From the NCBI GenBank assembly GCA_903830945.1, contig CAIKVT010000021.1, positions 4,519 to 68,518 on the forward strand: DNA of 64,000 nt, in the 5' to 3' direction. Under the pieces are notes generated by a model. That model worked only from the letters and a program-made list of their open reading frames with translations. It searched no databases and was not told where the DNA came from. The position numbers and the translations under genes are program-made. Origin of the DNA: an uncultured Elusimicrobia bacterium (GTDB taxonomy: Bacteria; Elusimicrobiota; Elusimicrobia; UBA1565; UBA9628). Positions 49,181 to 63,564 of this stretch are shown in pieces. Numbering within the stretch: the first letter of the stretch is position 1; each line of letters opens with the position of its first letter.

Positions 49181-51457
49181 ATGGCCCAAAGAGAGGGGAG
49201 CGCTAAGGTCGCGGCCGCAATCCGGTGGTACAAGGCGCGGCGCAGCACCTTTCAAGGCTGGGCGCAGGTCGTGGTCCCGGCGGTGCTTTTTTTGGGGTTG
49301 GTTTCGGTCCGGGTCGCGGAGCCGGGCTGGGTCGAACAGATCCAGCATAAGGCCTTCGATGCCTTCCAGCGGGCCAAGCCCCGCCCTTATGAGCCGGTCC
49401 CGGTCCGCATCATAGACATCGACGACGAGAGTCTCAGGCGCCTTGGGCAGTGGCCCTGGCCGCGGACGCAAGTGGCCCAGTTGGTCCGGCGTCTCAGCGA
49501 CCTGGGCGCCGCGGTCGTGGCCTTCGACGCCGTTTTTGCTGAGCCGGACCGGACCTCTCCGTCCCGGGTCGCGGAGCTCTGGCCCAAGTCCGCGGAGACC
49601 GAAAACTTGCGCCGCCAGTTGACGCGACTGCCGGACCATGACCGGGTCCTGGCCCAGGCCATCAGCCAGGCCGCGGTGGTCCTTGGCTTCGCTCTCGTGG
49701 CAGAGCCCAACGATGTCGTGCCCGCGGTCAAGGCGCCTTTCTCATACGGCGGCGACGGACCGCTGCTCTACCTGGATGATTTTCGGGGCGCGGTCACGGA
49801 CCTTCCCGCTCTGGAGGAAGCGGCCGCGGGCAACGGCTGCTTCAGCTTCCTGCCGGAGCTTGACGGCATGGCGCGTCGGGCGCCGCTCATTTTCAGGCGA
49901 GGCCAGACTCTGCTGCCCGCCCTCTCGGCTGAGGTTTTGCGCGTAGCACAGGGCGCGTCCAATTACGCGGTCAAGTCTTCAGGAGCCAGCGGCGAGGGGG
50001 GCTACGGCCAGCACACCGGCATCAGCAAGATCAAGATCGGCCGCTACGTCATCCCCACGGACAGCAAGGGGCGGGTCTGGGTCTATTTTACGGAGGACGC
50101 GCCGGAGCGTACGGTCTCGGCGTGGAGGGTTTTCAATAAAGGTTTCGACAAGTCCATCATCGAAGGCGGGATGGTCTTCGTGGGCACGAGTGCTGCGGGC
50201 CTCAAGGACATGCGCGCCACGCCTCTTAACCCGGCCCTGCCCGGGGTGGAGATGCACGCCAACGTGGTGGAGCAGGTCTTGCTGGGCCGGTTCTTGCAGA
50301 GGCCGGATTGGGCGACAGGCGCGGAACTCATCTATATGGTCCTGCTCGGCTGCCTGCTCTTGGTCCTGCTGCCTAGGCTCGGCGCGGCTTGGTGCGCGTT
50401 GGTGGGCGGCGCGGGCATGGCGGCGGCCGTGGGATTCTCCTGGCGCATGTTCGCGGACAGGGGCTTGCTCATCGACCCGGTCTTCCCGTGCTTGACCATA
50501 CTCGTGGTCTATATGTCTTCCTCGCTCATCAATTACCTTAAAAGCGAGACCGAGCGCCGACAGGTGCGCAACGCCTTCTCGCGCTATATGCACCCCAAGC
50601 TCGTCGCGGAGCTCGCCAAGCATCCGGAGAAGCTGCGCCTAGGCGGCGAGACGCGGGACATGACCATCCTCTTCTGCGACATCCGGGGATTCACCACCAT
50701 CTCCGAGCAGTTCGACGCCCACGGCCTTACCCAGATGATCAATAAGTTCCTCACCCCCATGACCGGCATCATCATGGACCGGTCGGGTTACATCGACAAG
50801 TACATCGGCGACTGTATCATGGCGTTTTGGAACGCGCCCTTGGACGACCCGGAGCATGCGCGCAACGCCTGCCAGGCGGCCCTGGCCATGCATCAACGGC
50901 TTGCGGAGCTCGAAGGCGTATGGAAGGCGGAGGCAGCGGCCGAGGGCCGCAAGTTCGTGCCTATCCACATCGGCGTGGGCCTTAACACCGGGCTTTGCTG
51001 CGTGGGTAATATGGGCTCTGATCAGCGCTTTAATTACTCGGTGCTGGGCGATGATGTGAACCTGGCCTCGCGCTTGGAAGGACAGTCCAAGCCTTACGGG
51101 GTGAACACGATCATCGGGCCGCGCACTCGCGAGCTGGTCGCGGAGTTCGCGGCGCTGGAGCTCGATCTTATCCGGGTCAAGGGCAAGACCAAGCCCGTGC
51201 GCATATTCACTCTGCTGGGCGACGCCCGGAAAGCCCAGGAGCCCGGCTTCCAGCGGCATGTGCAGGTCCATGACCGGATGCTGGCCGCCTACCGGGCCCA
51301 GAAGTGGGATGAGGCTTTGGCCTTGCTGGCTGAGTGCCGAGGGGGGGGGCTGCCGCTGGAGAAGCTCCACGACTGCTATGAGGAACGCATCCTGGATTTT
51401 CAGCTTCATCCGCCGGCCGCGGGTTGGGACGGCACGTTCACTGCGACGAGCAAATGA
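49181..51457 (+). CDS. CHASE2 sensor domain-containing class III adenylate/guanylate cyclase
   Basis: 758 aa with an N-terminal TM, an extracytoplasmic CHASE2-like region and 3 TM segments. The C-terminal cyclase domain has FCDIRGFTTISEQ, GDCIMAFWNAP and the LGDDVNLASRLE motif. Confidence 0.85.
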   Translation: MAQREGSAKVAAAIRWYKARRSTFQGWAQVVVPAVLFLGLVSVRVAEPGWVEQIQHKAFDAFQRAKPRPYEPVPVRIIDIDDESLRRLGQWPWPRTQVAQLVRRLSDLGAAVVAFDAVFAEPDRTSPSRVAELWPKSAETENLRRQLTRLPDHDRVLAQAISQAAVVLGFALVAEPNDVVPAVKAPFSYGGDGPLLYLDDFRGAVTDLPALEEAAAGNGCFSFLPELDGMARRAPLIFRRGQTLLPALSAEVLRVAQGASNYAVKSSGASGEGGYGQHTGISKIKIGRYVIPTDSKGRVWVYFTEDAPERTVSAWRVFNKGFDKSIIEGGMVFVGTSAAGLKDMRATPLNPALPGVEMHANVVEQVLLGRFLQRPDWATGAELIYMVLLGCLLLVLLPRLGAAWCALVGGAGMAAAVGFSWRMFADRGLLIDPVFPCLTILVVYMSSSLINYLKSETERRQVRNAFSRYMHPKLVAELAKHPEKLRLGGETRDMTILFCDIRGFTTISEQFDAHGLTQMINKFLTPMTGIIMDRSGYIDKYIGDCIMAFWNAPLDDPEHARNACQAALAMHQRLAELEGVWKAEAAAEGRKFVPIHIGVGLNTGLCCVGNMGSDQRFNYSVLGDDVNLASRLEGQSKPYGVNTIIGPRTRELVAEFAALELDLIRVKGKTKPVRIFTLLGDARKAQEPGFQRHVQVHDRMLAAYRAQKWDEALALLAECRGGGLPLEKLHDCYEERILDFQLHPPAAGWDGTFTATSK

Positions 51458-51466
51458 GGGGCCCTC

Positions 51467-52105
51467 ATGGATGAGCATCTCCAAGTCGGAACATTGAATA
51501 TCCTGATGAATGCGGCAGAGGCCCTGAGGAAGAATGGCTTTGAGACCGAGGTGTTCGCGGACGGGGCGTCCGCGGTTGCGTACATCCTCAAGCTGATAGG
51601 CTTGGGCAAGACCGTGGGAATTGGCGGGACTATGAGCGTCGTGGAGCTCGGGCTTGCCGAGCGGCTGGTCGCGGCCCGCAACGAGATCGTCACCCATCAG
51701 CCTGGCATGGGGCCGGAGGAGCGCCGGCGCGTCTTCCGTCAGGCCCAGGCCGCTGATTTCTATATCGCTTCGCCCCAGGCCGTGACGCGGGACGGCAAGA
51801 TGATCTTCGTCGACGGATTTGGGAATCGCGTGTCCGCCATCAGCTATGGCCCGGGGCGGGTCATTCTGCTGGCCGGGCGCAACAAGCTGGTCCGAGATAT
51901 CGATGAGGGGCTCTGGCGGATGCGGAACATCGCCGCGTTGGCCAACAACATAAGGCTCAAGAAGAATAACCCTTGCGTGAAGGCCGGGCTTTGCGTGGAC
52001 TGCTCGAGCCCGGAGCGCATCTGCAATGTGGTGACCATGCTTTGGAAGAAGCCGCGTGGCACGGAGTACAGCGTGGTCCTAGTCAATGAGGAGCTCGGAT
52101 ATTGA
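51467..52105 (+). CDS. LUD-domain (DUF162, LutC/YkgG-like) protein
   Basis: 212 aa, with conservation of the LUD fold (GIGGTMSVVELGL.., ASPQAVTRDGKMIFVDG). Confidence 0.6.
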   Translation: MDEHLQVGTLNILMNAAEALRKNGFETEVFADGASAVAYILKLIGLGKTVGIGGTMSVVELGLAERLVAARNEIVTHQPGMGPEERRRVFRQAQAADFYIASPQAVTRDGKMIFVDGFGNRVSAISYGPGRVILLAGRNKLVRDIDEGLWRMRNIAALANNIRLKKNNPCVKAGLCVDCSSPERICNVVTMLWKKPRGTEYSVVLVNEELGY

Positions 52106-52141: not shown

Positions 52142-52217
<76 letters not shown>

Positions 52218-52230
52218 ATCTCTGTGAAAA

Positions 52231-52260
52231 AAGCCCTCTGGCAAGAGGGCTTTTTTATTT
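52231..52260 (+). terminator. Rho-independent terminator downstream of tRNA-Ala
   Basis: The hairpin gccctct-ggca-agagggc at 52233-52250 is followed by tttttt. Confidence 0.75.
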
Positions 52261-52469: not shown

Positions 52470-53192
52470 ATGCGCATAGCCCGTGTATTGATTAATCATT
52501 TGGTTCATCGTCTTGATAATGCCATTATTTACACACTGTGCGAGTCTCGGAACATTGACTGCAATGACCGACCGCAGGCACTAAACCTTCGGGGACTTCC
52601 AGAGTCTATATTATCAGCAGGCATCTTGAACGGCCAGAACGTCGACATTGAACTCGTCGAGAGGGCGCGCAAAGGCGATGCCGATGCCTTTGGGATCCTG
52701 GTCATGCATTATCAACGCCTGCTCACAGTTATCGCATTTGAGATTCTGGGAGACACGGGGAGAACGGAGGATGTCGTGCAGGAAGCGTTCCTGTCCGCAT
52801 GGAAATCCCTCCCCCAATATAGGGGAGACGCCAGCTTCAAGAACTGGCTGTGCCGCATCCTGCTTAATAAGACCTATTCCGCGCTTCGTTGGGGACGCCT
52901 GCGCCGATGGCTCAGCCTCGACCAGCCATCCGGGGTTCCCTGGACCGAGACCTTGGAGGATACCGCGCCCGACGCGGACCCGGAACGCATCCGTCTGCGG
53001 GAGGAGCATTCGACCGCGGTGCGGCAGGCCGTGTCCGGTTTGCCGCTCCAGCAGAAGACCGCGGTCATATTGCGCTCCAACGGTCTTGACGTGGCCGAAG
53101 TGGCGCGGACCATGGGCGTCGCGGAGGGGACGGTCAAGGCGCATCTGCACCAGGCCCGCGCTCGACTCTCCTCGGTGATGGGGGGTACATGA
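52470..53192 (+). CDS. ECF (group 4) sigma-70 family RNA polymerase sigma factor
   Basis: Region 2 (LVERARKGDADAFGILVMHYQRLL..VQEAFLSAWKSL..FKNWLCRILLN) and region 4 (LRSNGLDVAEVARTMGVAEGTVKAHLHQARARL) are present. The ATG at 52470 gives 240 aa. A TTG at 52626 would give a more typical ~189 aa, so the start is uncertain. Confidence 0.8.
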   Translation: MRIARVLINHLVHRLDNAIIYTLCESRNIDCNDRPQALNLRGLPESILSAGILNGQNVDIELVERARKGDADAFGILVMHYQRLLTVIAFEILGDTGRTEDVVQEAFLSAWKSLPQYRGDASFKNWLCRILLNKTYSALRWGRLRRWLSLDQPSGVPWTETLEDTAPDADPERIRLREEHSTAVRQAVSGLPLQQKTAVILRSNGLDVAEVARTMGVAEGTVKAHLHQARARLSSVMGGT

Positions 53193-53536
53193 AACAAGAA
53201 GAAGACGACGCATTCTGGTCTGGAGTCGGGGACACGCTCCGGCCCCGCCTCAGCGAAGCTCATTGGACGGCTCAGCGCAACCGCATCCTTTCGCGGTTGG
53301 CCCCGGAGGAATCCGTGTCCGCATTCGCCGGCTGGTGGAAAGTCCCGGCGTTGACGCTGGCCTCGTGCGCTGTCTATGTGCTGTGCGTGGAGACATCCCT
53401 GCTCCCCCAGCCCACATCCGAACCGCCGGCCGCGGCGTCCTCGTCCGCCGGCGTCGTGACCCTGTCGACCATCCTGTCTGACGGGCAGGAGCCGAGCGAA
53501 GGGCATCTTTTGACCATGATCCTTGAAGGGGACTAA
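53189..53536 (+). CDS. Putative membrane-anchored anti-sigma factor
   Basis: 115 aa, translationally coupled to the ECF sigma gene (ATGA overlap), with a single TM (WWKVPALTLASCAVYVLCV). It is assigned by position and topology only. Confidence 0.5.
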   Translation: MKQEEDDAFWSGVGDTLRPRLSEAHWTAQRNRILSRLAPEESVSAFAGWWKVPALTLASCAVYVLCVETSLLPQPTSEPPAAASSSAGVVTLSTILSDGQEPSEGHLLTMILEGD

Positions 53537-53960
53537 AATGAACATGCGCTGGAATCAGATCGCCATATCGGTCGCGGTGGGCTTCCTTGCGGGAGCCTTG
53601 TTCTCCGATTTCTATCACATGCATATCAAGCGCAGGCCGCCCAAGGCCGTCCCGGAGGAAGGGGCGATAGAGAGGTGCACGCGCGAGTTGGACCTTTCCA
53701 AGCAGCAGCAGGACCAGGTGGCCGCCATCTTCAAGGAATATCGTCCAAAAGTGCGCGGTGTGAAGGATTCGATCCGGCCCGCATTGGAAGGCCTGCGCCT
53801 CAAGATCAAATCCGAATTGAGATCGGTCCTTACGCAGATGCAATACTCCAAGCTCGAAAAGCTCGACGATGAGTCCCGGCGGACCGAGGGTCCTCCGCCA
53901 ATGCGGGAGGGTCCAGGAGATTCCCGGCTACACGGCCAGGACCCGCCCCCCCGCCGCTAA
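53523..53960 (+). CDS. Periplasmic LTXXQ-motif protein (Spy/CpxP/ZraP-like)
   Basis: 145 aa with a signal/TM sequence, then helical repeats (LDLSKQQQDQVAAIFKEY.., LRLKIKSELRSVLTQMQYSKL) and a Pro-rich tail. The true start may be MNMRW at 53538. Confidence 0.5.
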   Translation: MKGTKMNMRWNQIAISVAVGFLAGALFSDFYHMHIKRRPPKAVPEEGAIERCTRELDLSKQQQDQVAAIFKEYRPKVRGVKDSIRPALEGLRLKIKSELRSVLTQMQYSKLEKLDDESRRTEGPPPMREGPGDSRLHGQDPPPRR

Positions 53961-54129
53961 GCCAGCGCCCTCCGGCGCAGACTCATCCGTTCCCACCCCC
54001 TAAATCCTCCTGCAGGGTCAACCGGGCCAGAATGCGTGTATTTTACAGGCATTTCCCCAAGTAAACCAAAATCCTTCCTGGGCGTCTCCATTGATGCAGG
54101 GGCTTTAGCCGGGCCGTCACAGAGGGTAT

Positions 54130-54687
54130 ATGCAAAAATCGATGGCCGCGATCTGCAACGCCGCGATCAGCGTGTGCCTTGGGACGATGATCCTGGGCGG
54201 CCGCGTGCAGGCTGCGGACTTCGGATCGGATGTGGGGCAAGGCACTTTCGGCGTCGGGCTGAACTACCCGGGGCTGGGCATGAGATATTTCCCGAGCGAT
54301 CAGCTGGCCTTGGAAGTCAAAGGCGAAGTAGACAAGGACGTGGTGGTCGGAGGCCTGCGGGGGTATTGCTATTTGACGCGCGTTTCCCGAGGAGCGCTTT
54401 TTCTGGGCGCGGAAGCCGACTACATACATTTCAAGGGAGCGGTCAGCCGGGGTTCCGGGGCTGTAGGCCAGGTGTTCGGCGGGTTCGAGTATTTTATATT
54501 GCAGGCTGTCGCTTTGCAGGCTGATTTTGGGCCGGCCTACATCTACCTTAAGAACCAGCAGGGCGGCCTTTCAGTCAGCGGCGTGGAGTACACGGCCAAT
54601 TTCGGGTTCAATTTCTATTGGGGAGGCAGAATGGCGCAAGAATCTCGGCCTTATACGCGGGATGAGGCTTCATGGTTGAGATATTGA
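54130..54687 (+). CDS. Small outer-membrane beta-barrel protein (OmpW/OmpA-barrel-like)
   Basis: 185 aa with a signal peptide, alternating hydrophobic beta-strand pattern and an aromatic-rich terminal strand (ANFGFNFYWGG). Confidence 0.5.
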   Translation: MQKSMAAICNAAISVCLGTMILGGRVQAADFGSDVGQGTFGVGLNYPGLGMRYFPSDQLALEVKGEVDKDVVVGGLRGYCYLTRVSRGALFLGAEADYIHFKGAVSRGSGAVGQVFGGFEYFILQAVALQADFGPAYIYLKNQQGGLSVSGVEYTANFGFNFYWGGRMAQESRPYTRDEASWLRY

Positions 54688-54688
54688 T

Positions 54689-57600
54689 ATGAAACGAATA
54701 TCCTGCTTGATCCTATTGGCGATCTTATCGATCACGGTCGATCTTTCAGCCGGATTCGACATCGGAATCACCAAAGCCATCAAGCGCAAGGTGGATTTGC
54801 TGGACAATAAAGTCACGGACAGCAGGAAGCCCGTGGTCTCGTTCGGATTCTCGCCGAGCGCACCCACCCCGGGCCAGACGGTAAGCTTCATCGACGTCTC
54901 CACGAATACGCTTACGTCATGGTCATGGGCATTCGGGGATGGTGCGACCAGCACCTCCCAAAACCCGGCCCACGCCTACAGCTTCGCGGGAACCTACGCA
55001 GTGACGCTCACAGGCACGAATGCCTGGGGCTCCAGCACCGCCAGGAAGACCGTGACCGTGACGGCCGCGGCGGTCGCGCCGGTCGCGGCCTTCAGCTTCT
55101 CGCCGTCCTCGCCGACCGCCGACCAGACGGTCACTTTCACGGACGTCTCCACCCACACGCCCACTTCCTGGTCTTGGACCTTCGGGGACGGGGGGACCAG
55201 CACTTCGCAAAACCCGACCCACGCCTACACTCCCTCCGGGACCTACATGGCCACGCTGACGGCCTCCAATTCAGCCGGCTCCAACGCCGTCAGCCGCACC
55301 GTGACCGTGAACCCGAGCTCTTTTTCCCTCGCTAGCTCCGCCTTCGCCGAGGGCGGAACCCTGCCGTACGACTACGCCTGCGACGGAGGAGGCGCCTCGC
55401 CCGACCTGTCCTGGAATAATAAGCCGTCCGGCACGCAGGAATTCGCGCTGACGATGAAGACTATAACTGCAGACGGGACGCCTAAATGGAACTGGGTGAT
55501 GTACAGCATCCCCGGGACGACTACGGGCTTGGCCAAGAACACTTCCGGGGTAGGCGTTACCGGGCTTGGCAGCGACCTGTCAGCCCTGGTCTATAATCCG
55601 CCCTGCTCGCTGGGGCCCGGACCCAGGACTTACACCCTGACCTTGTACGCGCTGTCGGAGTCGCCGACCCTGCCCGCCGCCGACCAGGTCACCGGCGCCG
55701 TGCTTATCAGCGCCATTTCGTCCATCACGATCAGTTCGACTTCCCTGGACATGACCTACAGCCGGCCCGCCCCCACGGCCGCTTTCACCTTCTCCCCGTC
55801 CTCTCCGTCTACTGGCACGATCGTTGCTTTTATGGATACCTCCACCCGCACGCCCACCGGCTGGTACTGGGACTTCGGGGATGGGGCGACCAGCAGTTCG
55901 CGGAACTCCACACACGCCTACAGCTCTGCGGGTACGTACACCGCATCGCTGACGGCCTCCAATCCGTACGGCTCCTCCAGCTCAAGCCAGGCCGTGACAG
56001 TCAGCGCGACTGGGATCCTACCCACGGCCGCGTTCAGCTTCTATCCGAGCAGTCCGACCACCTATAACACGGTAAGCTTCACCGACTTCTCGCTGAGCAC
56101 CCCGACGGCCTGGGCCTGGAATTTCGGCGACAGCGCCGTCAGCACGGCACAGTACCCGACGCACGTATACGGCTCCGCGGGCACCTACACCGTGACGCTC
56201 ACGGCGACTAATTCCTCCGGCTCGTCCACCTCGACCCATTCCGTGACCGTGGCCGTGCCGGCCTATAACATCGCGCAGGGCGTTTCCGACCAGGCCCAGG
56301 GCACCACTTTGGCCTTTGACGCCCTCGGCCTGATGAACGCCAACCTGGGCGCCGAATCCTATTTCCCGCCGGGCAAGGTGGCCGACTACACAGGCTTCCA
56401 GTTCCTACGCGACAGCGACCCCAGCAATATGGGCCACAACCCGGATTTCACGGGCCTGACCTCCAACAGCGTCATCCGTATACTCACCGACAGCCAACTG
56501 GCGCAACTGGCTGCCCTGGCCGTGAGCCAGGCGGACCTGGTCAACCAGTACGCATATCACCGCTTCACGCTGATAAAGGCGTTCCGGCGTCTTATGGACG
56601 GGGATATGCCCTCCGGCACCGCCGGTCTGAGCATGAGCGCGGTGACGGGCGTGTCGCAGAACCTCTACGCTATGGACGGCCAGATCGCCTTCGACCGGGC
56701 CCTGCTCTACGCCAACATCTACAAGTCCATGACGCGCGCCCAGCTGGCCGCCCTGGATGCCATGAAAGGGGTGGGCGCCTCCTCCTGGACCGTAACCGAC
56801 GCCAATTTCATGAAGGCCAGGGTAGAGTCCGCGCTGGGTCTCACCTATGCTTCCAACGCGACGATGAACACCCTGGTGCAGACCTACGCCGGCGACCTCT
56901 ACAGCTGGTATTCCGGCACGGTGGAGGCGGACGTCTACTTCTGCCCGGAGCGCCACGGCACCTACTACGGCGGGTTCTACATCAAGGACGCGCCGGCCAT
57001 GAACGCGCCGCAGGGCGTCAGTTACACCATTGACTCGGCTCTGACCGGGAACGCCGGGGCCAGCCTTCTCGACAGCTCGCTGGGCTACGTCACACCCACG
57101 CAGGCCGCCATCATGACTAACCTCATGAACACCCAGAAGAGCAACATGAACGGCATAGTCCAGGTGCGCACGCAGATAGCGGCTCTGCTGCGCACCCTGC
57201 TTGTCTCTACCGCTGCCAGCGACTCCGTCAGGGCGCAGGTGCTCGCGCTGTCCTCCGGCACCTACGGCACGCTGGACGGCCGGAACAACTACTACTACGC
57301 CACCGCCTTCAAGCAGGTCCATGACGCGCTGAGCGCTAGCCAGCGGGCCAAGCTGAAAACGGATTTCTGGGATGGGCTGCTTATCAGCACCTACACCAAC
57401 GGAAAAACTTACGACTATTCGGTCTGCAAATCCACTTATCTCTATTCGGACACCACCACCGACCCGAGCGTGCTGGCCCAGATACAGACTTACATAGACA
57501 ACACCGACTCCCTGTTCTCCACCGACCCGCCCTCGGCCGCGTTCTCATTCTCGCCGAGCACGCCCACGGTCGGGCAGACGATCACGTTCACGGACGCCTC

Positions 57601-58225
57601 CGACGGCCCCCCAACCTCATGGTCGTGGGATTTTGGTGACGGCGGCACCAGCGCGTCGCAGAACCCGACGCACTCTTACGATTCCTCCGGCACCTACACT
57701 GTCTCGCTGACGGCCACCAATGCCATCGGCTCGAGCTCCATAAGCCATACCCTCAGCGTCAGCCAGGGAAGTTTTACCCTGGTGAGCGGCGCGGGGGCCA
57801 GCGGCGGGGCCATGACGCTGGAATATTCCTGTTCCGGCGCCGGGTCTTCGCCGGCGATGTCCTGGACCAACGCGCCCTCCGGGACGCAACAGTTCGCTCT
57901 GACCATGTCTGAAGTCACTCCCCAGTTGGAGACCAAATATAACTGGGTCCTCTACGGCATACCAAGCGGCAGTTCCGGCTTTGCCAAGAACACTACCGGC
58001 GGTGGAACGCTGGGCGAGAGCGACGGAACGGCGGGAACGGCTTACAGCCCGCCCTGCGGCCCCGGTAACAGGCTTTATACGTACAGACTCTACGCCCTGT
58101 CCGGAGCCCCATCGCTCTCGTCCAATCCGGCGCAGGTAACAGGTTCCGTTCTTGCGACCGCGCTCGCGGGCATCACCATCAGTTCCGCGACCATGACGCT
58201 GACCTATACGGCGCCATCGCCATGA
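54689..58225 (+). CDS. Giant secreted multidomain protein: five PKD domains, two PEBP (YbhB/YbcL) domains and a central ~400-aa domain of unknown family
   Basis: 1178 aa. PKD signatures WxWxFGDGxTSxxQNPxHxY occur at about aa 77, 166, 392, 476 and 976. PEBP-like segments lie at about aa 215-335 and 1032-1150 (..YACDGGGASPDLSW.., ..YTLTLYAL..). The central region (about aa 527-955) is paralogous to the protein at 58992-60626. Confidence 0.8.
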   Translation: MKRISCLILLAILSITVDLSAGFDIGITKAIKRKVDLLDNKVTDSRKPVVSFGFSPSAPTPGQTVSFIDVSTNTLTSWSWAFGDGATSTSQNPAHAYSFAGTYAVTLTGTNAWGSSTARKTVTVTAAAVAPVAAFSFSPSSPTADQTVTFTDVSTHTPTSWSWTFGDGGTSTSQNPTHAYTPSGTYMATLTASNSAGSNAVSRTVTVNPSSFSLASSAFAEGGTLPYDYACDGGGASPDLSWNNKPSGTQEFALTMKTITADGTPKWNWVMYSIPGTTTGLAKNTSGVGVTGLGSDLSALVYNPPCSLGPGPRTYTLTLYALSESPTLPAADQVTGAVLISAISSITISSTSLDMTYSRPAPTAAFTFSPSSPSTGTIVAFMDTSTRTPTGWYWDFGDGATSSSRNSTHAYSSAGTYTASLTASNPYGSSSSSQAVTVSATGILPTAAFSFYPSSPTTYNTVSFTDFSLSTPTAWAWNFGDSAVSTAQYPTHVYGSAGTYTVTLTATNSSGSSTSTHSVTVAVPAYNIAQGVSDQAQGTTLAFDALGLMNANLGAESYFPPGKVADYTGFQFLRDSDPSNMGHNPDFTGLTSNSVIRILTDSQLAQLAALAVSQADLVNQYAYHRFTLIKAFRRLMDGDMPSGTAGLSMSAVTGVSQNLYAMDGQIAFDRALLYANIYKSMTRAQLAALDAMKGVGASSWTVTDANFMKARVESALGLTYASNATMNTLVQTYAGDLYSWYSGTVEADVYFCPERHGTYYGGFYIKDAPAMNAPQGVSYTIDSALTGNAGASLLDSSLGYVTPTQAAIMTNLMNTQKSNMNGIVQVRTQIAALLRTLLVSTAASDSVRAQVLALSSGTYGTLDGRNNYYYATAFKQVHDALSASQRAKLKTDFWDGLLISTYTNGKTYDYSVCKSTYLYSDTTTDPSVLAQIQTYIDNTDSLFSTDPPSAAFSFSPSTPTVGQTITFTDASDGPPTSWSWDFGDGGTSASQNPTHSYDSSGTYTVSLTATNAIGSSSISHTLSVSQGSFTLVSGAGASGGAMTLEYSCSGAGSSPAMSWTNAPSGTQQFALTMSEVTPQLETKYNWVLYGIPSGSSGFAKNTTGGGTLGESDGTAGTAYSPPCGPGNRLYTYRLYALSGAPSLSSNPAQVTGSVLATALAGITISSATMTLTYTAPSP

Positions 58226-58295
58226 TGAAAGATCCAGGCGCCGCCAGGCTGGACTTCTTGCCGGCAAAACAGTTTAAACTATGTCTGGAGGAATT

Positions 58296-58910
58296 ATGAA
58301 ACGGCTGACATTTTTAGAGCTTGGCTTGATGCTAGTGCTTTCCCTTCCGGGCGGAGCCGCCCTGGCGCAGTCGGAGCAAGGCGCGGTGAGGAAAAGTCCC
58401 GCACTCCACTTCATCCTGCGTAGCCCGGCGGTGGATGGCGGCGGACAGCTCCCGAAAGACTACACCGGCGACGGAACCAGTTCCACGCTGCCGCTCGAAT
58501 GGAACGGAGCCCCAAAGGAGACAAAGAGTTTCGCAATCATCATGCATCATGTGGCGCCTGACATGATCAAGTGGTACTGGATCCTCTACGACATTCCGGC
58601 CAAAGTCAGGCGCCTGCCCAAGAACGTGAAAGGCGTGGGCAAGCTTGGCAACAACAGCGTCAACGGCCGGGTGGAGTACGCCCCGCCGCATTCCAAGGGC
58701 CCGGGACCCAAGACCTACATCTACACCCTCTACGCCCTATCCGCGCCGCCCAAGCTGGCTGTGCCACCGATTGAAGTCAACCGCGACGCCTTGCTCGCCG
58801 CCATGAAGGGCCTCGTCATCGACAGCGCCCAGCTAAGCGTGGTTTACGAACGGTTTCCCGCACCGGACGGCCGCGAGGGGAATGCGCCGCCCCCAAACGA
58901 CCGGCCATAA
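58296..58910 (+). CDS. Secreted PEBP family protein (YbhB/YbcL, Raf-kinase-inhibitor-like)
   Basis: Signal peptide, then PEBP motifs (LPLEWNGAPKETKSFAIIMHH..DMIKWYWILYDIP..GPKTYIYTLYAL). Confidence 0.8.
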   Translation: MKRLTFLELGLMLVLSLPGGAALAQSEQGAVRKSPALHFILRSPAVDGGGQLPKDYTGDGTSSTLPLEWNGAPKETKSFAIIMHHVAPDMIKWYWILYDIPAKVRRLPKNVKGVGKLGNNSVNGRVEYAPPHSKGPGPKTYIYTLYALSAPPKLAVPPIEVNRDALLAAMKGLVIDSAQLSVVYERFPAPDGREGNAPPPNDRP

Positions 58911-58991
58911 TGCAAGGAATTATATGAGGGCTGACCTAAACCAAAATCATGTTCGGGCGTCTGTATATATGAGGGGTCTTGAGGAGGACTT

Positions 58992-60626
58992 ATGAAAATG
59001 AGAGCGTTCTTGATAGCCGCAATTTTCTCCCTATTGGCTTGGTCAGCTGGGAATTCTTATGCCCAGGAAGAGAATGGCGGGGGTGGAAGAGGCCCGCGCA
59101 GAGGATCGCAGTCTGTCTCCGCAGAGCAAAAGGCCTCCGCCAAGAATGCCCTTTCGGGCTACAACGCCTCGAGCCTCTCAGCCGACGATGCCAAGGCCAT
59201 CCACAGGGCCATGCGGGAGATCGGCATCCACGGGGGGCCTGCGGAGGACGAGCTTCTCAGCTCCATCGGGTTCGACCCCGAAACGCTTAAGAAACTCGAT
59301 CCGCCGCCGGCCAGGCGCGGCGGCCAAGAGAGAGGGGGCAATAGCGGAGGGAGCTCACGGGAGGACCGCGGCGGAGGGATGCGCGGGGACCAGGGCCAAG
59401 ACAGAGGCGGCGAGAGAGCTGGGGCGAGGCCGGGCCCATCGGGGAAGCGCGGCCCGGGCGGCAGCCAATATAGCCTCGAGCAGGCGCTCTCGGACAACGC
59501 CCAGCTGCACACCATCGCATTCAATGGACTGGCGTTTCTGACCGGCGATTTCGGTGCAGCCACCTTCATCCCGCCGGGCAAGGTGTGCGACTTCTTTGGG
59601 TTCCAATACATGCGCGACATCGACGCGGCGAAGAAGGGGCATAACCCCATCTTCCTCAACCGCGTCGTGGGAAACGTCCTTCATATCCTCACAGCCGATC
59701 AAAAGCAGCTGTTTCTGGACCTGGCGGCGGAGCAGGGGCCGCAGCTTACGGCCCTGGCGAAGCTGCGGCTGCCGGTCATCAAGGCTTTCCACCTACAGAG
59801 GGACAACCAGCTGCCTGCGGGCAGTTCCGGGCTGAACAAGGCAGCCGTCATGCGCGGCGTCGGCGAGATCTTCGCCATGGACGCCGAACTCAGCCGCCGT
59901 CGGGCGGAGGTCATGGCGCAGGTGTATTTATCCCTGACGCCTGACCAGAAGGCTTCCTTCGCCAGGATGAAGTTCGGCGATTTCAACACCTGGGCGGACC
60001 TCGACGAGAGCGAAGGCAAGGAAGCCGGCCGCGGCAAGCCCAAGATGTTCAACGTGGCCTATATGACCTACGCCAGCGAGTTCTTCAGCTGGACCGCCGG
60101 CTCGGTGGAAGCGGACGTCTATTTCTGCCCGGAGCGTCACGGCACGTACTTCGGCGGATTCTACATGAAGGACATGCCCGCCATGGGCAAGCGCAATTAC
60201 GACATCAGCACCTCGGTCACCGGCGACAGCGGCAAGGCGTTCCTTGACGACGCGCTCACCCCCGCCCAGCGCCAGAACGTCACAGCGATCCCCGCCCTCC
60301 AGCGGCAGGCCATGGACAAGATCGTGACGGTGCGCCGGGCGATGTCCCAGGAGCTGCGCAAATACCTCAAAGGCCAGACGCCGGACAAGAAAAGGATAAT
60401 AGCGTTGGGCCGCCAATACGGCGAACTGGACGGTGAGGTGTCCTGGTACTATGCCACGGCCTTCGCCCGCGTCAACCGCACGCTCACCGCTCAGCAGCGC
60501 GCTGCATTGGTCAAGCTGCGCAACTTGGACGGCTACACGAGCGCGCCCTATTACATCTATTCGGATGGTGCGCGGGAGGAGCCGGAATTGGGAGACGTCG
60601 ATGCCTTCTTCTTTGCGCCTAAATAA
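58992..60626 (+). CDS. Secreted protein: Gly/Arg-rich low-complexity N-terminal segment plus a ~400-aa domain of unknown family shared with the giant PKD protein
   Basis: 544 aa with a signal peptide. About aa 28-160 are RGG/GGR-rich. About aa 165-544 align with the giant-protein centre (shared blocks FIPPGKVxDFxGFQ..RD.D....GHNP.F and SVEADVYFCPERHGTYFGGFY.KD.PAM). Confidence 0.7.
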   Translation: MKMRAFLIAAIFSLLAWSAGNSYAQEENGGGGRGPRRGSQSVSAEQKASAKNALSGYNASSLSADDAKAIHRAMREIGIHGGPAEDELLSSIGFDPETLKKLDPPPARRGGQERGGNSGGSSREDRGGGMRGDQGQDRGGERAGARPGPSGKRGPGGSQYSLEQALSDNAQLHTIAFNGLAFLTGDFGAATFIPPGKVCDFFGFQYMRDIDAAKKGHNPIFLNRVVGNVLHILTADQKQLFLDLAAEQGPQLTALAKLRLPVIKAFHLQRDNQLPAGSSGLNKAAVMRGVGEIFAMDAELSRRRAEVMAQVYLSLTPDQKASFARMKFGDFNTWADLDESEGKEAGRGKPKMFNVAYMTYASEFFSWTAGSVEADVYFCPERHGTYFGGFYMKDMPAMGKRNYDISTSVTGDSGKAFLDDALTPAQRQNVTAIPALQRQAMDKIVTVRRAMSQELRKYLKGQTPDKKRIIALGRQYGELDGEVSWYYATAFARVNRTLTAQQRAALVKLRNLDGYTSAPYYIYSDGAREEPELGDVDAFFFAPK

Positions 60627-60632
60627 GGAAGA

Positions 60633-62051
60633 ATGCTGATGATCCGCATACCGGTCATCGGAATCATCCTCGCCCTGGCCGCAGGCCCGGCTTGCGCAGC
60701 GCCGGATGCCGAGGGGCGGGGTCGCGGCGGGCGTCACGGTCCGGAGCACCAGGCCAAGGTCGAAGTGCCTGCGCGTCCTCTGGATGTCGTTCTCGGCAGA
60801 CCCACGGCGACCTCGGTCACGGCCAGCGTCCTTTTGTACGCAGGCGGACGCGGAAGCGTCGAGTATGGAGTGCGCCAGGGAGAGTACCCGGACCATACTC
60901 CCGTGACCGAGTTCGGCAAAGGAACCCCGGTCCACATGGTGATCGGACCCCTTAAGGCCGACACGCGCTATTATTATCGGTTCCGTCACGAGACCGCCGG
61001 CGCGCAGGGCGCGGTCGCAGGCACATTCCACACCCAGCGCGCGCCCGGCAGCGCTTTCGTGTTCACTGTGCAGGCTGATTCTCACCTGGATCAGAACACA
61101 AGCACCGAGCTCTACGAGCGGACGCTGCGCAACGCCCTGGCCGACAGGCCGGATTTCCATATCGACCTGGGCGACACGTTCATGACCGGGAAGTATCGGG
61201 GCCAGGATCCATCGAGGCTTTACCTGGCGCAGCGCTACTATTTCGGCTTGCTTTGCCATTCCGCGCCTCTTTTTTTCGTGCTCGGCAATCACGACGGGGA
61301 ACCAGGCGGCGGCCGCGGACAGCCAGCCGACGCGATCCTGCTGCGCAAGAAGTACTTCCCCAACCCTGTCCAGGACGGGTTCTACACGGGAGAGGACCGT
61401 GGCGCCCTGGAGAACTATTACGCGTGGCAATGGGGCGACGCGCTGTTCGTCGTGCTCGACCCGTTCCGATATTCCGGTCGGCCTCGTGGCGAGCCGGAGG
61501 ACAACTGGAACATGACTTTGGGGGCGGAGCAATATCATTGGCTGAAGCGGACTCTGGAAAACAGCAAGGCCGCGTTCAAATTCGTGTTCATCCATCATCT
61601 GGTCGGTGGTGTAAACCGCGACGGCCGCAACCGCGGCGGGGCCGAGGCCGCGGCGTTCTATGAGTGGGGGGGGCGCAACGCGGACGGCAGCGATGGTTTC
61701 GCGGAGCAACGCCCCGGCTGGGAGATGCCCATCCAGCAGCTCCTTGTGCGCAACGGCGTGCAGATCGTTTTTCACGGTCACGACCATTTTTTCGCGAAGC
61801 AGGACCTGGGCGGCATCGTCTACCAGCTTGTGCCGCAGCCCGGAGCACAGGAGCGCCGCAGCGTGCGAGAAGCCGAACGCTATGGATATGAGAAAGGCGA
61901 ATTCCTGAGCAGCCCCGGCCACCTGCGCGTCCGCGTGTCCCCGAACAGCGCTGTTGTGGAGTGCGTCCGGTCACGCTTGCCGGAAGATGAGGGGATGCGG
62001 AAAGAGAAAGACGCGGTCGCCTACACCTATACGATCCCGGCTGCGCCATAA
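60633..62051 (+). CDS. Secreted calcineurin-like metallophosphoesterase with a purple-acid-phosphatase-type N-terminal domain
   Basis: Signal peptide, then an FN3-like N-domain (..VTASVLLYAGGRGSVEYGV..ADTRYYYRFRH). Phosphoesterase motifs are present: GDTFMTGKY, VLGNHDGE and FHGHDHFF. Confidence 0.8.
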   Translation: MLMIRIPVIGIILALAAGPACAAPDAEGRGRGGRHGPEHQAKVEVPARPLDVVLGRPTATSVTASVLLYAGGRGSVEYGVRQGEYPDHTPVTEFGKGTPVHMVIGPLKADTRYYYRFRHETAGAQGAVAGTFHTQRAPGSAFVFTVQADSHLDQNTSTELYERTLRNALADRPDFHIDLGDTFMTGKYRGQDPSRLYLAQRYYFGLLCHSAPLFFVLGNHDGEPGGGRGQPADAILLRKKYFPNPVQDGFYTGEDRGALENYYAWQWGDALFVVLDPFRYSGRPRGEPEDNWNMTLGAEQYHWLKRTLENSKAAFKFVFIHHLVGGVNRDGRNRGGAEAAAFYEWGGRNADGSDGFAEQRPGWEMPIQQLLVRNGVQIVFHGHDHFFAKQDLGGIVYQLVPQPGAQERRSVREAERYGYEKGEFLSSPGHLRVRVSPNSAVVECVRSRLPEDEGMRKEKDAVAYTYTIPAAP

Positions 62052-62251: not shown

Positions 62252-62409
62252 ACGGCATATGATGACGAATGCGGATGCGGCTTACACACTCGGCCGAGAG
62301 AGGCGGTCGGGGCCGTGGAGTTTGAGGCCGTAGGCTCATTCTTCGGGGTTGGGGCCGATATTATAATTGACATATAACATGGCGTTTATTATGATAATAG
62401 CCGCTATAT

Positions 62410-63564
62410 ATGGTAACCAATATGCCTGAAAACATCACACGGATACTCGACATCCGTAAAGAAGTCGAGAAAAAGTCGTGTTTCCTATTCGGCCCCAGGC
62501 TGACAGGGAAGACTTGGCTTCTGCGGCATACTCTTAAAAATATCCGGACCTACAACTTGTTGGACCACGACACCTTTCTGCGTCTCAGCCGCTCTGCCAG
62601 CCTCATAGGTGAGGAATGTACGGCTCGGGACTCCATCGTCGTCATCGATGAGGTCCAGAAGCTCCCTTCGCTGCTTGATGCGGTCCACATGCTCATCGAG
62701 GAGCGAGGGATCCATTTTCTTTTGACCGGATCCAGCGCCCGAAAGCTGCGCCGCGGCGGCGTCAACTTGTTGGGGGGCAGGGCCCGGATCAGGAATCTCT
62801 ACCCCTTGAGTTTCTCCGAACTACAGAAGTCCTTCAATCTTGAGCGTGCCGTCAACCACGGACTGCTCCCGGCTATTTACTCGTCGCAGGAGCCGGACGA
62901 GGACTTGAAGGCCTATGTGGGCACGTACCTTCAAGAGGAAGTGGCCGCCGAAGGATTGACGCGAAATATCCCGGCCTTCAGCCGATTCCTGGAAGTGGCC
63001 GCCTTGTGCAACGGCAAGATGATTAATTTCGCCAACATCGCCAACGACGCACAGGTGGCGCGCAGCACCGTTCAGGAATACTTCCAAATACTCAAAGACA
63101 CATTGCTCGCTCATGAGGTGCCGGCTTGGCGCAAATCCGTAAGGCGTAAGCCCATCACAACCTCGAAATTCTATCTGTTCGATTCAGGGGTCGCCCGGAT
63201 CCTTCAGCACCGTGGCCGCATCAATCCTGGCTCTCCGGAATTCGGAGAAGCCTTCGAACACTTCATATTCCATGAATTGTTGACCTACGCCGACTATTGC
63301 CGGGCAGGAGAGATCCGCTACTGGCGGTCGCTCTCCGGTTTTGAGGTCGACTTCGTCCTGGGAGACACTGCAGCCATCGAAGTGAAAGCTGGCAAGAACG
63401 TGTCTCCGCAGGACCTCAAGGGTCTGCGCGCCTTACGCGAAGAGGGGGGCCTCAAGCACTATCTAATGGTGTCCGGCGAGAGAACCGCGCGGGTCATCGA
63501 CGGCATACGCATTCTTCCCTGGAAGGAATTCCTCCAACAGCTTTGGGATGGACGATTCAGCTGA
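62410..63564 (+). CDS. AAA-family ATPase of the AAA_14/DUF4143 type
   Basis: 384 aa with Walker A FLFGPRLTGKTWLL and Walker B VVIDEVQKL. The C-terminal ~150 aa have the conservation typical of DUF4143. An AT-rich promoter-like region lies upstream. Confidence 0.7.
   Translation: MVTNMPENITRILDIRKEVEKKSCFLFGPRLTGKTWLLRHTLKNIRTYNLLDHDTFLRLSRSASLIGEECTARDSIVVIDEVQKLPSLLDAVHMLIEERGIHFLLTGSSARKLRRGGVNLLGGRARIRNLYPLSFSELQKSFNLERAVNHGLLPAIYSSQEPDEDLKAYVGTYLQEEVAAEGLTRNIPAFSRFLEVAALCNGKMINFANIANDAQVARSTVQEYFQILKDTLLAHEVPAWRKSVRRKPITTSKFYLFDSGVARILQHRGRINPGSPEFGEAFEHFIFHELLTYADYCRAGEIRYWRSLSGFEVDFVLGDTAAIEVKAGKNVSPQDLKGLRALREEGGLKHYLMVSGERTARVIDGIRILPWKEFLQQLWDGRFS

Follow-up and report, generated by a model that had tools for sequence, protein, structure and literature searches.

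The window analysed here, a 64-kb stretch of contig CAIKVT010000021.1 from an uncultured Elusimicrobia bacterium, carries at positions 52470-62051 of the + strand, the region under study, eight consecutive protein-coding genes that encode an extracytoplasmic function (ECF) sigma factor, two further putative regulatory proteins and five exported proteins, among them a metallophosphoesterase, proteins with the phosphatidylethanolamine-binding protein (PEBP) fold and two proteins with a common helical domain. A preliminary description of this DNA had counted nine genes while itself naming only eight; the open reading frame (ORF) listing gives eight, all at the positions reported there, and the domain calls are borne out by Pfam and NCBIfam profiles. 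The cut-offs applied are 24.3 bits for LTXXQ (PF07813), 24 for PEBP (PF01161, Pfam name PBP), 21.5 for Metallophos (PF00149), 27 for PhoD, 30 for Pur_ac_phosph_N and 42.9 for TIGR02937. The standalone-gene version of the helical domain is denoted type A and the giant-protein version type B. For comparison, one genome per species was scanned, which yielded at least 572 loci in species-representative genomes, and the best 80 of these, ranked by similarity to the type A domain, were used for neighbourhood analysis (individual loci are denoted L001 and so on). Within the 64-kb window, no other copies of any module gene were found.

The set opens with the ECF sigma factor gene (52470-53192, +), the product of which matches Sigma70_r2 (55 bits), Sigma70_r4_2 (50 bits) and TIGR02937 (83 bits); the ORF is open from 52470, and the probable start, according to the public gene call, is a TTG at 52626, yielding a protein of 188 aa. 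The start of the next gene (53189-53536, +) overlaps the sigma stop codon. Its 115-aa product has one internal hydrophobic segment (aa 54-72) in the hydropathy scan that was used for export and transmembrane segments, matches no family in Pfam or NCBIfam, including any anti-sigma family, and has homologues at the equivalent position in L006 and L007; its position and topology make it a candidate single-pass anti-sigma factor. The third gene (53523-53960, +) encodes a small anchored LTXXQ-like periplasmic protein of 140-145 aa, with an N-terminal hydrophobic segment (aa 13-31; hydropathy scan), matches to Metal_resist (20.3 bits) and LTXXQ (17.5 bits) that are both below cut-off, and no match in a PDB sequence search; possibly, this protein is a co-sensor resembling CpxP or CnrX. 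Identification with CnrX itself was considered and dropped given the sub-cut-off scores and the lack of a PDB match. The trio resembles CnrYXH in combining a sigma factor, a single-pass protein (115 aa), an anchored protein of 145 aa with weak Metal_resist/LTXXQ similarity and putative autoregulation. The known system has the gene order cnrY-cnrX-cnrH, whereas in the window the sigma gene comes first and the regulated genes do not encode an efflux pump, so that the likeness goes no further than resemblance.

The remaining five genes encode proteins that all carry N-terminal export signals, detected by the hydropathy scan in four of them and judged by eye in the 544-aa protein. A small 185-aa protein (54130-54687, +) with a signal peptide is a candidate 8-stranded outer-membrane barrel; it has no Pfam match and only a faint match to OMP_myx_plus, so that the barrel assignment made earlier is plausible and still unproven. 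Its gene abuts that of a 1178-aa giant protein (54689-58225, +), in which Pfam detects five PKD and two PBP domains in the order proposed at the outset, PKD-PKD-PEBP-PKD-PKD-helical domain-PKD-PEBP, where the helical domain is of type B (aa 526-936, 56264-57496). Next come a standalone PEBP-fold protein of a divergent subfamily (58281-58910, +; PBP 72.5 bits), the 544-aa helical-domain protein (58992-60626, +; LTXXQ 37.6 bits; type A domain at aa 160-544, 59469-60623) and a binuclear metallophosphoesterase with an N-terminal FN3-like domain (60633-62051, +; Metallophos 43.5 bits, PhoD 27.2 bits). Besides the window, the barrel gene is found in only three of the 80 loci (L002, L006 and L007), the same three that hold full-length orthologues of the giant protein; the complete eight-gene layout with barrel and PKD-rich giant is limited to L006 and L007 and is partial in L002. 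Three features that the preliminary description had treated as integral to the module, namely the small barrel, the PKD domains and the architecture of the 1178-aa protein, are thus confined to the lineage of the window and its close relatives.

The domain shared by the giant and the 544-aa protein is real: aa 160-540 of the latter and aa 526-936 of the former are 36% identical (E 2e-75). It had been described as unassigned, which holds for two near-invariant segments that match no family and does not hold for two units that map to Pfam LTXXQ, a partial assignment that alters the view to be taken of its mechanism. The 544-aa protein as a whole reaches 37.6 bits with this profile, and its halves score separately at 26.2 (aa 242-324) and 25.0 bits (aa 422-509) and align with each other (E 7e-4); in the type B copy of the giant, unit 2 gives 18.2 bits and unit 1 gives no match. 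The domain, of ~390 aa, is thus ordered as a near-invariant N segment, LTXXQ unit 1, a near-invariant middle segment and LTXXQ unit 2. No family matches the 62-residue stretch ahead of unit 1 or the 85-residue stretch that separates the units, yet the domain is nowhere more conserved than in these two, with the pattern PPGKVxDxxGFQxxRDxD....GHNP in the N segment and W..G..EADxYFCPER.GTY.G.FY.KD in the middle segment, positions that are invariant among the type A copies, the copy in the giant and 57 distant members of the family. The middle segment of the type A domain in the window reads ADxYFCPERHGTYFGGFYMKD, and the consensus of the wider family at this place is CPERQG...KDAPA. The invariant CPER was compared by eye with the formylglycine motif of sulfatases and does not fit C-x-P-x-R.

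An AlphaFold2 model of the domain built from 22 sequences is all-helical and consists of two long-helix bundles (mean predicted local distance difference test score, pLDDT, 81; predicted template modelling score, pTM, 0.86). PDB searches with a single sequence and with a profile returned no match, and no solved structure resembles the whole domain. Like Spy, CpxP and ZraP, the LTXXQ proteins that go with the envelope-stress sensors BaeSR, CpxAR and ZraSR, the domain is exported, all-helical and above the PF07813 threshold; unlike these proteins of ~100-160 aa, which comprise one unit and dimerise, it holds two units in one chain of ~390 aa and has two near-invariant non-helical segments with the invariant Cys-Pro-Glu-Arg. 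To our knowledge, Spy, CpxP and ZraP are neither fused nor linked to PEBPs or ester hydrolases, unlike the domain considered here (see below). We read the domain as two Spy/CpxP-like units joined in tandem within one chain, to which two probably functional loop segments specific to the family are added. The N-terminal extension of the 544-aa protein (aa 26-155, 59067-59460) is a highly charged, R/G/D/E/Q-rich linker around a conserved module of ~60 aa (…LSADDAKAIHRAMREIGIHGGPAEDELLSSIGFDPETLKKLDPPP), which is common to a subset of homologues (P0008, P0012, P0047, P0059 and P0120); in three others (P0063, P0114 and P0116), pairs of EF-hands occupy its position.

The family is large. In a word-indexed search, more than 3,300 clusters at 90% identity were recovered, and each of the top 120 matches the whole domain at 67-82% identity. 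An exhaustive phmmer comparison with 1.84 billion representatives, clustered at 50% identity, found 803 clusters with E<=1e-3, of which 585 reach E<=1e-10; their lengths range from 400 to 1336 aa. The 80 best loci come from metagenome-assembled genomes (MAGs) labelled as about eight phyla, with the labels Elusimicrobia, Planctomycetota, Verrucomicrobiota, Lentisphaerae, Acidobacteriota, Armatimonadota, Desulfobacterota, Bacteroidota and others, and the carriers are mostly heterotrophs of freshwater and sediment. Among these loci, the Elusimicrobia copies are closest to the domain of the window (80-83% identity); outside the sister clade, type A domains are 63-76% identical to it (median 67%), and they are better conserved than the phosphoesterase of the same locus (median 49.5%) in all 43 paired loci. 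The window itself has a match in a 148-kb contig of a lake metagenome. One MAG labelled Elusimicrobia (CAIXBR01) holds the PEBP-domain-phosphoesterase block on three contigs (L002, L004 and L005), which means that either this genome has several paralogous copies of the block or the bin is a mixture of strains.

For some of the clusters, the Joint Genome Institute (JGI) uses the name 'Spy/CpxP family protein refolding chaperone', a label that, together with the scores of both halves above the LTXXQ threshold, suggests a reading in which the helical domain is a signalling accessory and stress chaperone in the manner of CpxP and ZraP, with the hydrolases and the PEBP as variable cargo of the regulon. 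We consider this rather unlikely. Spy, CpxP and ZraP have nothing that corresponds to the two near-invariant segments, which are charged and aromatic and include an invariant Cys; identities of 63-76% across phyla are unusual for a generalist holdase; and the regulatory operon in the window already includes a separate small LTXXQ protein. Further evidence that bears on this reading comes from the gene neighbourhoods.

In the neighbourhood analysis, all ORFs of each locus were translated and searched with the proteins of the window, and the neighbours were also clustered de novo; complete loci are the 43 in which 4 kb or more of sequence flanks the domain gene on each side, and partners were counted within 6 kb. 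Recurrence of the neighbourhood, chosen beforehand as one of two tests by which the proposed module could fail, was found, with some partner present in 39 of the 43 complete loci. The same metallophosphoesterase subfamily is near the domain in 26 of these loci, the same PEBP subfamily in 16, a second, giant-type (type B) paralogue in 13, a Cys-type sulfatase-family enzyme in 12 and an SMP-30/gluconolactonase-type propeller (SGL) in three; any hydrolase is present in 31. Across all 80 loci, the domain stands beside the metallophosphoesterase subfamily in 48 and the PEBP subfamily in 30, and the phosphoesterase is frequently represented by two paralogues in the same locus.

Moreover, fusions are known for every pairing of the domain, the PEBP and the metallophosphoesterase. 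The domain is fused to the PEBP in one order in six loci (L061, L067, L072, L075, L077 and L080) and in the opposite order in four (L039, L052, L062 and L079), the type B domain is fused to the PEBP in L036 and L081 and to the phosphoesterase in L020, and the PEBP is fused to the phosphoesterase in L036 and L045; in a 1370-aa ORF of L031, only the type B domain could be confirmed. Among 57 long members of the family, PBP is the most common fused Pfam domain (11/57), followed by PKD, Lcl_C, SGL, sorting tails of the type IX secretion system (T9SS) and many immunoglobulin (Ig)-like domains, and these latter fusions indicate secreted or surface proteins. The recurrent adjacency (48 and 30 of the 80 loci) and the independent pairwise fusions thus uphold the initial suggestion that domains which occur both fused and as separate genes mark one functional unit. 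Minimal versions of the module, with no hydrolase within 6 kb, are seen in L052, L061, L062 and L072.

These findings bear directly on two of the alternatives. PKD-rich surface proteins often shuffle their domains, and so the adjacency could be coincidental, with the shared domain a product of local duplication that has no functional link to the PEBP and the phosphoesterase. However, given its recurrence in dozens of unrelated genomes, the gene arrangement is far beyond chance, and with the same partners across phyla, fusions in all pairings and common promoter motifs (see below), coincidence is highly improbable. For the chaperone reading, the evidence is mixed: partner hydrolases differ between lineages and some loci hold just a two-component system, the domain and the PEBP, as would be expected of variable cargo, whereas covalent fusions to the PEBP and the phosphoesterase speak for direct cooperation rather than co-regulation alone.

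The metallophosphoesterase passes the Pfam threshold for Metallophos (43.5 bits), is borderline for PhoD (27.2 bits against 27) and below cut-off for Pur_ac_phosph_N (20.6 bits), and passes no NCBIfam family. Five motifs, D149-x-H151, G180-D181, G218-N219-H220-D221, H321 and G382-H383-D384-H385, are invariant in 24 homologues. A Foldseek search with an AlphaFold2 model (pLDDT 73, pTM 0.79) retrieved a purple acid phytase (1.9e-19), PhoD of Bacillus (9e-18) and purple acid phosphatases of plants (PAPs; ~1e-17), the best fold matches being 6giz, 2yeq, 4dhl and 1xzw, with template modelling (TM) scores of about 0.55-0.62 at ~16% identity. The enzyme thus resembles PAPs and PhoD in being exported and in its fold, its five motifs and its N-terminal FN3-like domain, and differs from them in its low identity, in motif 1, which is DSH (DxH) instead of the DxG of PAPs, and in motif 2, an invariant GDTFM without the Fe(III)-ligating Tyr of GDxxY. 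The earlier designation as purple-acid-phosphatase-like accordingly stands for the fold (PAP/PhoD-like), and GDTFM and DSH set the protein apart from purple acid phosphatases proper.

Cys-type sulfatase-family genes (CTPSR, CSPTR or CAPTR) and genes for SMP-30/gluconolactonase-like propellers are features of 16 of the 80 loci, for example L082 (10340-11698) and L084 (10257-12406), and in many loci from Verrucomicrobiota, Planctomycetota and Pontiellaceae they directly follow the domain gene, instead of the metallophosphoesterase or beside it. The cultured carrier Pontiellaceae B12227 (GCA_029432775.1) shows the arrangement two-component system, domain, sulfatase and SGL. All sulfatase-family partners but that of L021 carry the formylglycine motif C[TSA]P[ST]R, and these partners also give Phosphodiest matches. 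With Cys-type sulfatases and SMP-30 propellers among the partners, the theme of extracellular phosphate handling proposed at first turns out to be too narrow, and anionic-ester hydrolysis in general fits the partners better than phosphate specifically. The PAP/PhoD-like fold, the Phosphodiest matches, the export of all products and the freshwater and sediment habitats of most carriers would also suit ordinary scavenging of phosphate (and sulfate) from organic esters under starvation, in which the helical and PEBP proteins would be passive binders or accessories. Such scavenging seems improbable to us, considering that the module has a dedicated sensor of its own and not PhoBR, that PstS, PhoU and uptake genes are not conserved nearby, that constancy and the highest conservation belong to the helical domain and not to the enzyme, and that some loci have no hydrolase.

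The standalone PEBP aligns with both PEBP domains of the giant (E 2e-28 and 1e-26); the PF01161 profile gives 72.5 bits for the former and 108.6 bits, in two copies, for the giant. By sequence, the PDB relatives of the standalone protein are 3n08, YbcL and YbhB, with matches to 3n08, 1fux and 1fjj. It shares the fold of YbhB and YbcL and, like YbcL, is periplasmic, but differs from both in that the DPDxP and H-R(Y) motifs are replaced by IMHH..P and GPGxK and in its conserved operon and fusions. At the pocket positions, the standalone protein has IMHHVAPD and GPGPKTY, the two domains of the giant have MKTITAD/MSEVTPQ and GPGPRTY/GPGNRLY, and the consensus of the 45 module-associated domains is IMHH..P..TKWYW and PPHSKGPGxKxY. 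Because the pocket motifs are replaced, ligand specificity is not transferable from classical PEBPs, which weakens the original argument that PEBPs bind phosphate-containing ligands. According to a 2022 review of the FT/PEBP/YbhB proteins (PMC8793217), bacterial genes of the YbhB family are rarely found in conserved neighbourhoods or operons or as fusions; the association described here does not appear in that review.

An ECF-type promoter motif, expected if the sigma factor controls these genes, was found upstream of the sigma, barrel and standalone-domain genes. Copy 2 (54062-54087, +) lies 43 nt before the ATG of the barrel gene and copy 3 (58937-58962, +) 30 nt before that of the gene for the standalone helical domain; the two are identical at 20/20 positions, and their pattern, TAAACCAAAATC-N6-GGGCGTCT, has exactly these two matches in the window against 0.00 expected. 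Copy 1 (52582-52607, +), which conforms to TAAACC-N16-GTCT, lies 19 nt upstream of the likely TTG start of the sigma gene at 52626 and provides an independent test, because the pattern was derived from copies 2 and 3; TAAACC-N16-GTCT has exactly three matches in the 64 kb against 0.02 expected. The pattern AAAC-N15-17-CGTC also matches at three places in the window, and the two matches that fall in the module are near-identical. No further copies of the promoter motif were found elsewhere in the 64-kb window. The motif of copy 3 is also present in L001. We infer that the three copies act as promoters, with copy 1 a candidate autoregulatory promoter of the sigma gene, and the arrangement fits an autoregulated ECF sigma factor that would drive two structural operons, barrel-giant-PEBP and domain-phosphoesterase.

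In the sister loci L002, L003, L004, L005, L006, L007 and L032, a different ECF-type motif, GGAACTTTTT-N12-GTTTAA, is found at the two equivalent promoter positions, including the spacer between the PEBP and domain genes. The sister sigma factors are far more divergent than the structural genes, and the sigma factor and the promoter may be changing together in the sister genomes. No autoregulatory motif was found upstream of the sigma genes of L006 and L007.

Control by an ECF sigma factor, as initially proposed for the module, thus agrees with the three motif copies in the genome of the window and does not extend to the module in general, which in most lineages is accompanied by a two-component system. 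In ~20 loci, an OmpR-type regulator and a histidine kinase are encoded directly upstream in divergent orientation, with the domain gene first across the shared promoter; planctomycete loci have a different sigma factor with a partner of ~360 aa. A dedicated sensor adjoins the module in 23 of the 43 complete loci. In cpxP-cpxRA and zraP-zraSR, an LTXXQ gene is likewise divergent from its two-component system, a likeness to CpxAR and ZraSR systems that adds to the case for a CpxP/ZraP-like accessory.

The two-component systems of the other genomes score best against the heavy-metal czcR/silR/copR and czcS/silS/copS subfamilies of NCBIfam. Their scores miss the cut-offs of these subfamilies (TIGR01386/TIGR01387), with 224.9 against 279.2 bits for the regulator and 251.9 against 292.55 bits for the kinase, and the kinase match spans only profile positions 142-457, the cytoplasmic part and not the sensor domain; a heavy-metal identity of these systems was therefore dropped. 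The best hits nevertheless raise the question of a metal-stress or metal-handling system, in which the domain would bind a metal with its invariant Cys, with His, Asp and Glu and, for type A, with an M-x-x-M-x-x-M loop, this metal would be the signal for the sensor, and either phosphate released by the phosphatases would immobilise the metal or the phosphatases would need it as a cofactor. Consistent with this reading, Metal_resist (CnrX/ZraP) weakly matches both the small LTXXQ protein and the second unit of the domain, a similarity that the module shares with ZraP and CnrX, the type A domain has FYMKDMPAMGK and CPERH in a flexible loop, some homologues carry N-terminal EF-hands, and the partner enzymes are all metal-dependent. 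Against it stand, besides the sub-cut-off scores and the kinase match outside the sensor domain, the Met residues and the His of CPERH, which are not conserved in type B and the wider family, the resistance-nodulation-division (RND) efflux genes, which are near the domain in only five loci, and the small LTXXQ protein, which has no PDB relative by sequence. We know of no metal-resistance system that combines a PEBP with a metallophosphoesterase, nor did literature searches reveal one, and overall we regard a metal system as unlikely.

Upstream of the module in the window, genes at 49181-52105 encode a CHASE2-guanylate/adenylate cyclase of 758 aa and a LUD-domain protein, which are not conserved beside the module in other genomes. 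A tRNA-Ala(GGC) gene (52142-52217) followed by a strong terminator-like hairpin (52227-52256) immediately precedes the module, and the GC content dips at its ends, to 0.58 at 52-54 kb and 0.55 at 62-64 kb; the tRNA gene with the hairpin and these dips could mark the insertion point of a mobile block. Just downstream, in a low-GC stretch, a near-consensus sigma-70 promoter (TTGACA-17-TATGAT, 62367-62395) precedes a gene for an AAA_14/DUF4143 ATPase (62410-63564). A 664-aa ORF on the minus strand (59928-61922) is antisense to the domain and phosphoesterase genes; comparable antisense ORFs recur in related loci and cluster together, and these were rejected as genes, being shadow ORFs of a GC-rich conserved gene.

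Taken as a whole, the observations are best accounted for, with a likelihood that we put slightly short of even, by a conserved exported module in which the tandem-LTXXQ domain, the divergent PEBP and metal-dependent anionic-ester hydrolases carry out sensor-coupled hydrolysis of phospho- or sulfo-esters. In the window, an envelope cue would be sensed via the candidate single-pass anti-sigma factor and the small anchored LTXXQ protein, and the released sigma factor would fire the three matching promoters, those of its own operon, of barrel-giant-PEBP and of domain-phosphoesterase. The hydrolase, the helical protein and the PEBP proteins would be exported to the periplasm, where the PKD-rich giant and the small barrel may position some of the products on the cell surface, and a phospho- (or sulfo-) ester substrate would be bound and hydrolysed at the periplasm or the surface. 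The helical domain would form, in a single chain, a 'cradle' that holds either substrate or enzyme and is probably in physical contact with the PEBP and the hydrolases. Domain architecture, recurrence, fusions, export signals and promoter repeats are observed directly; what we infer is this contact, the action of the domain as a cradle, the class of substrate and the cue. More specific, and doubtful although possible, is the proposal that the tandem-LTXXQ domain is a Spy-like cradle in a single chain whose near-invariant loops, lined by Cys, Glu, Arg, Asp and His, form a ligand-binding or catalytic site, and that, with the re-purposed PEBP and the hydrolases, it constitutes an unrecognised periplasmic or surface pathway with a sensor of its own.

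Several points weigh against the favoured explanation. A hydrolase within 6 kb is missing from 12 of the 43 complete loci, and some of these consist only of the two-component system and a PEBP-domain fusion, with or without a type B paralogue, which implies that hydrolysis may not be the core function. Clustering of the neighbours revealed no conserved product transporter near the module, and PstS, PhoU and other uptake genes likewise are not conserved there. No characterised homologue links the helical domain to any activity, and its conserved segments are low-confidence loops in the AlphaFold2 model, in which a binding site is not describable. The PEBP subfamily lacks the canonical DPDxP and G-x-H-R motifs of the anion pocket in the 45 module-associated domains. 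As to regulation, the -10 element of copy 1 is AGTCT rather than CGTCT, and the promoter role of all three copies is predicted from sequence. Finally, the partner frequencies describe the type A subfamily and may not hold for the whole family.

The building blocks are of known kinds, namely LTXXQ proteins under envelope sensors, PEBPs and metallophosphoesterases, but the domain as a whole and the module are undescribed. In agreement with the preliminary description, no described system with this combination was found in Pfam, NCBIfam, the PDB or the searchable literature, where searches on PEBP with metallophosphoesterase, on YbhB/YbcL gene clusters and on LTXXQ yielded nothing on the module. 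The helical domain thus defines a large family that is 63-76% identical across phyla, has neither a model of its own nor a solved relative or literature, and is mislabelled as a simple 'Spy/CpxP refolding chaperone'. The three-promoter ECF regulon of the window is directly testable. For bacterial PEBPs, the module supplies a conserved operon and fusion context, which, if the proposed function is true, would be their first conserved functional context. The link between LTXXQ envelope-stress proteins and exported phospho/sulfo-esterases hints at an unexplored means by which ester hydrolysis outside the cell could be controlled or assisted, of relevance to Planctomycetota, Verrucomicrobiota and other abundant heterotrophs of freshwater and sediment, and the pathway, if real, would operate in hundreds of species from many phyla.

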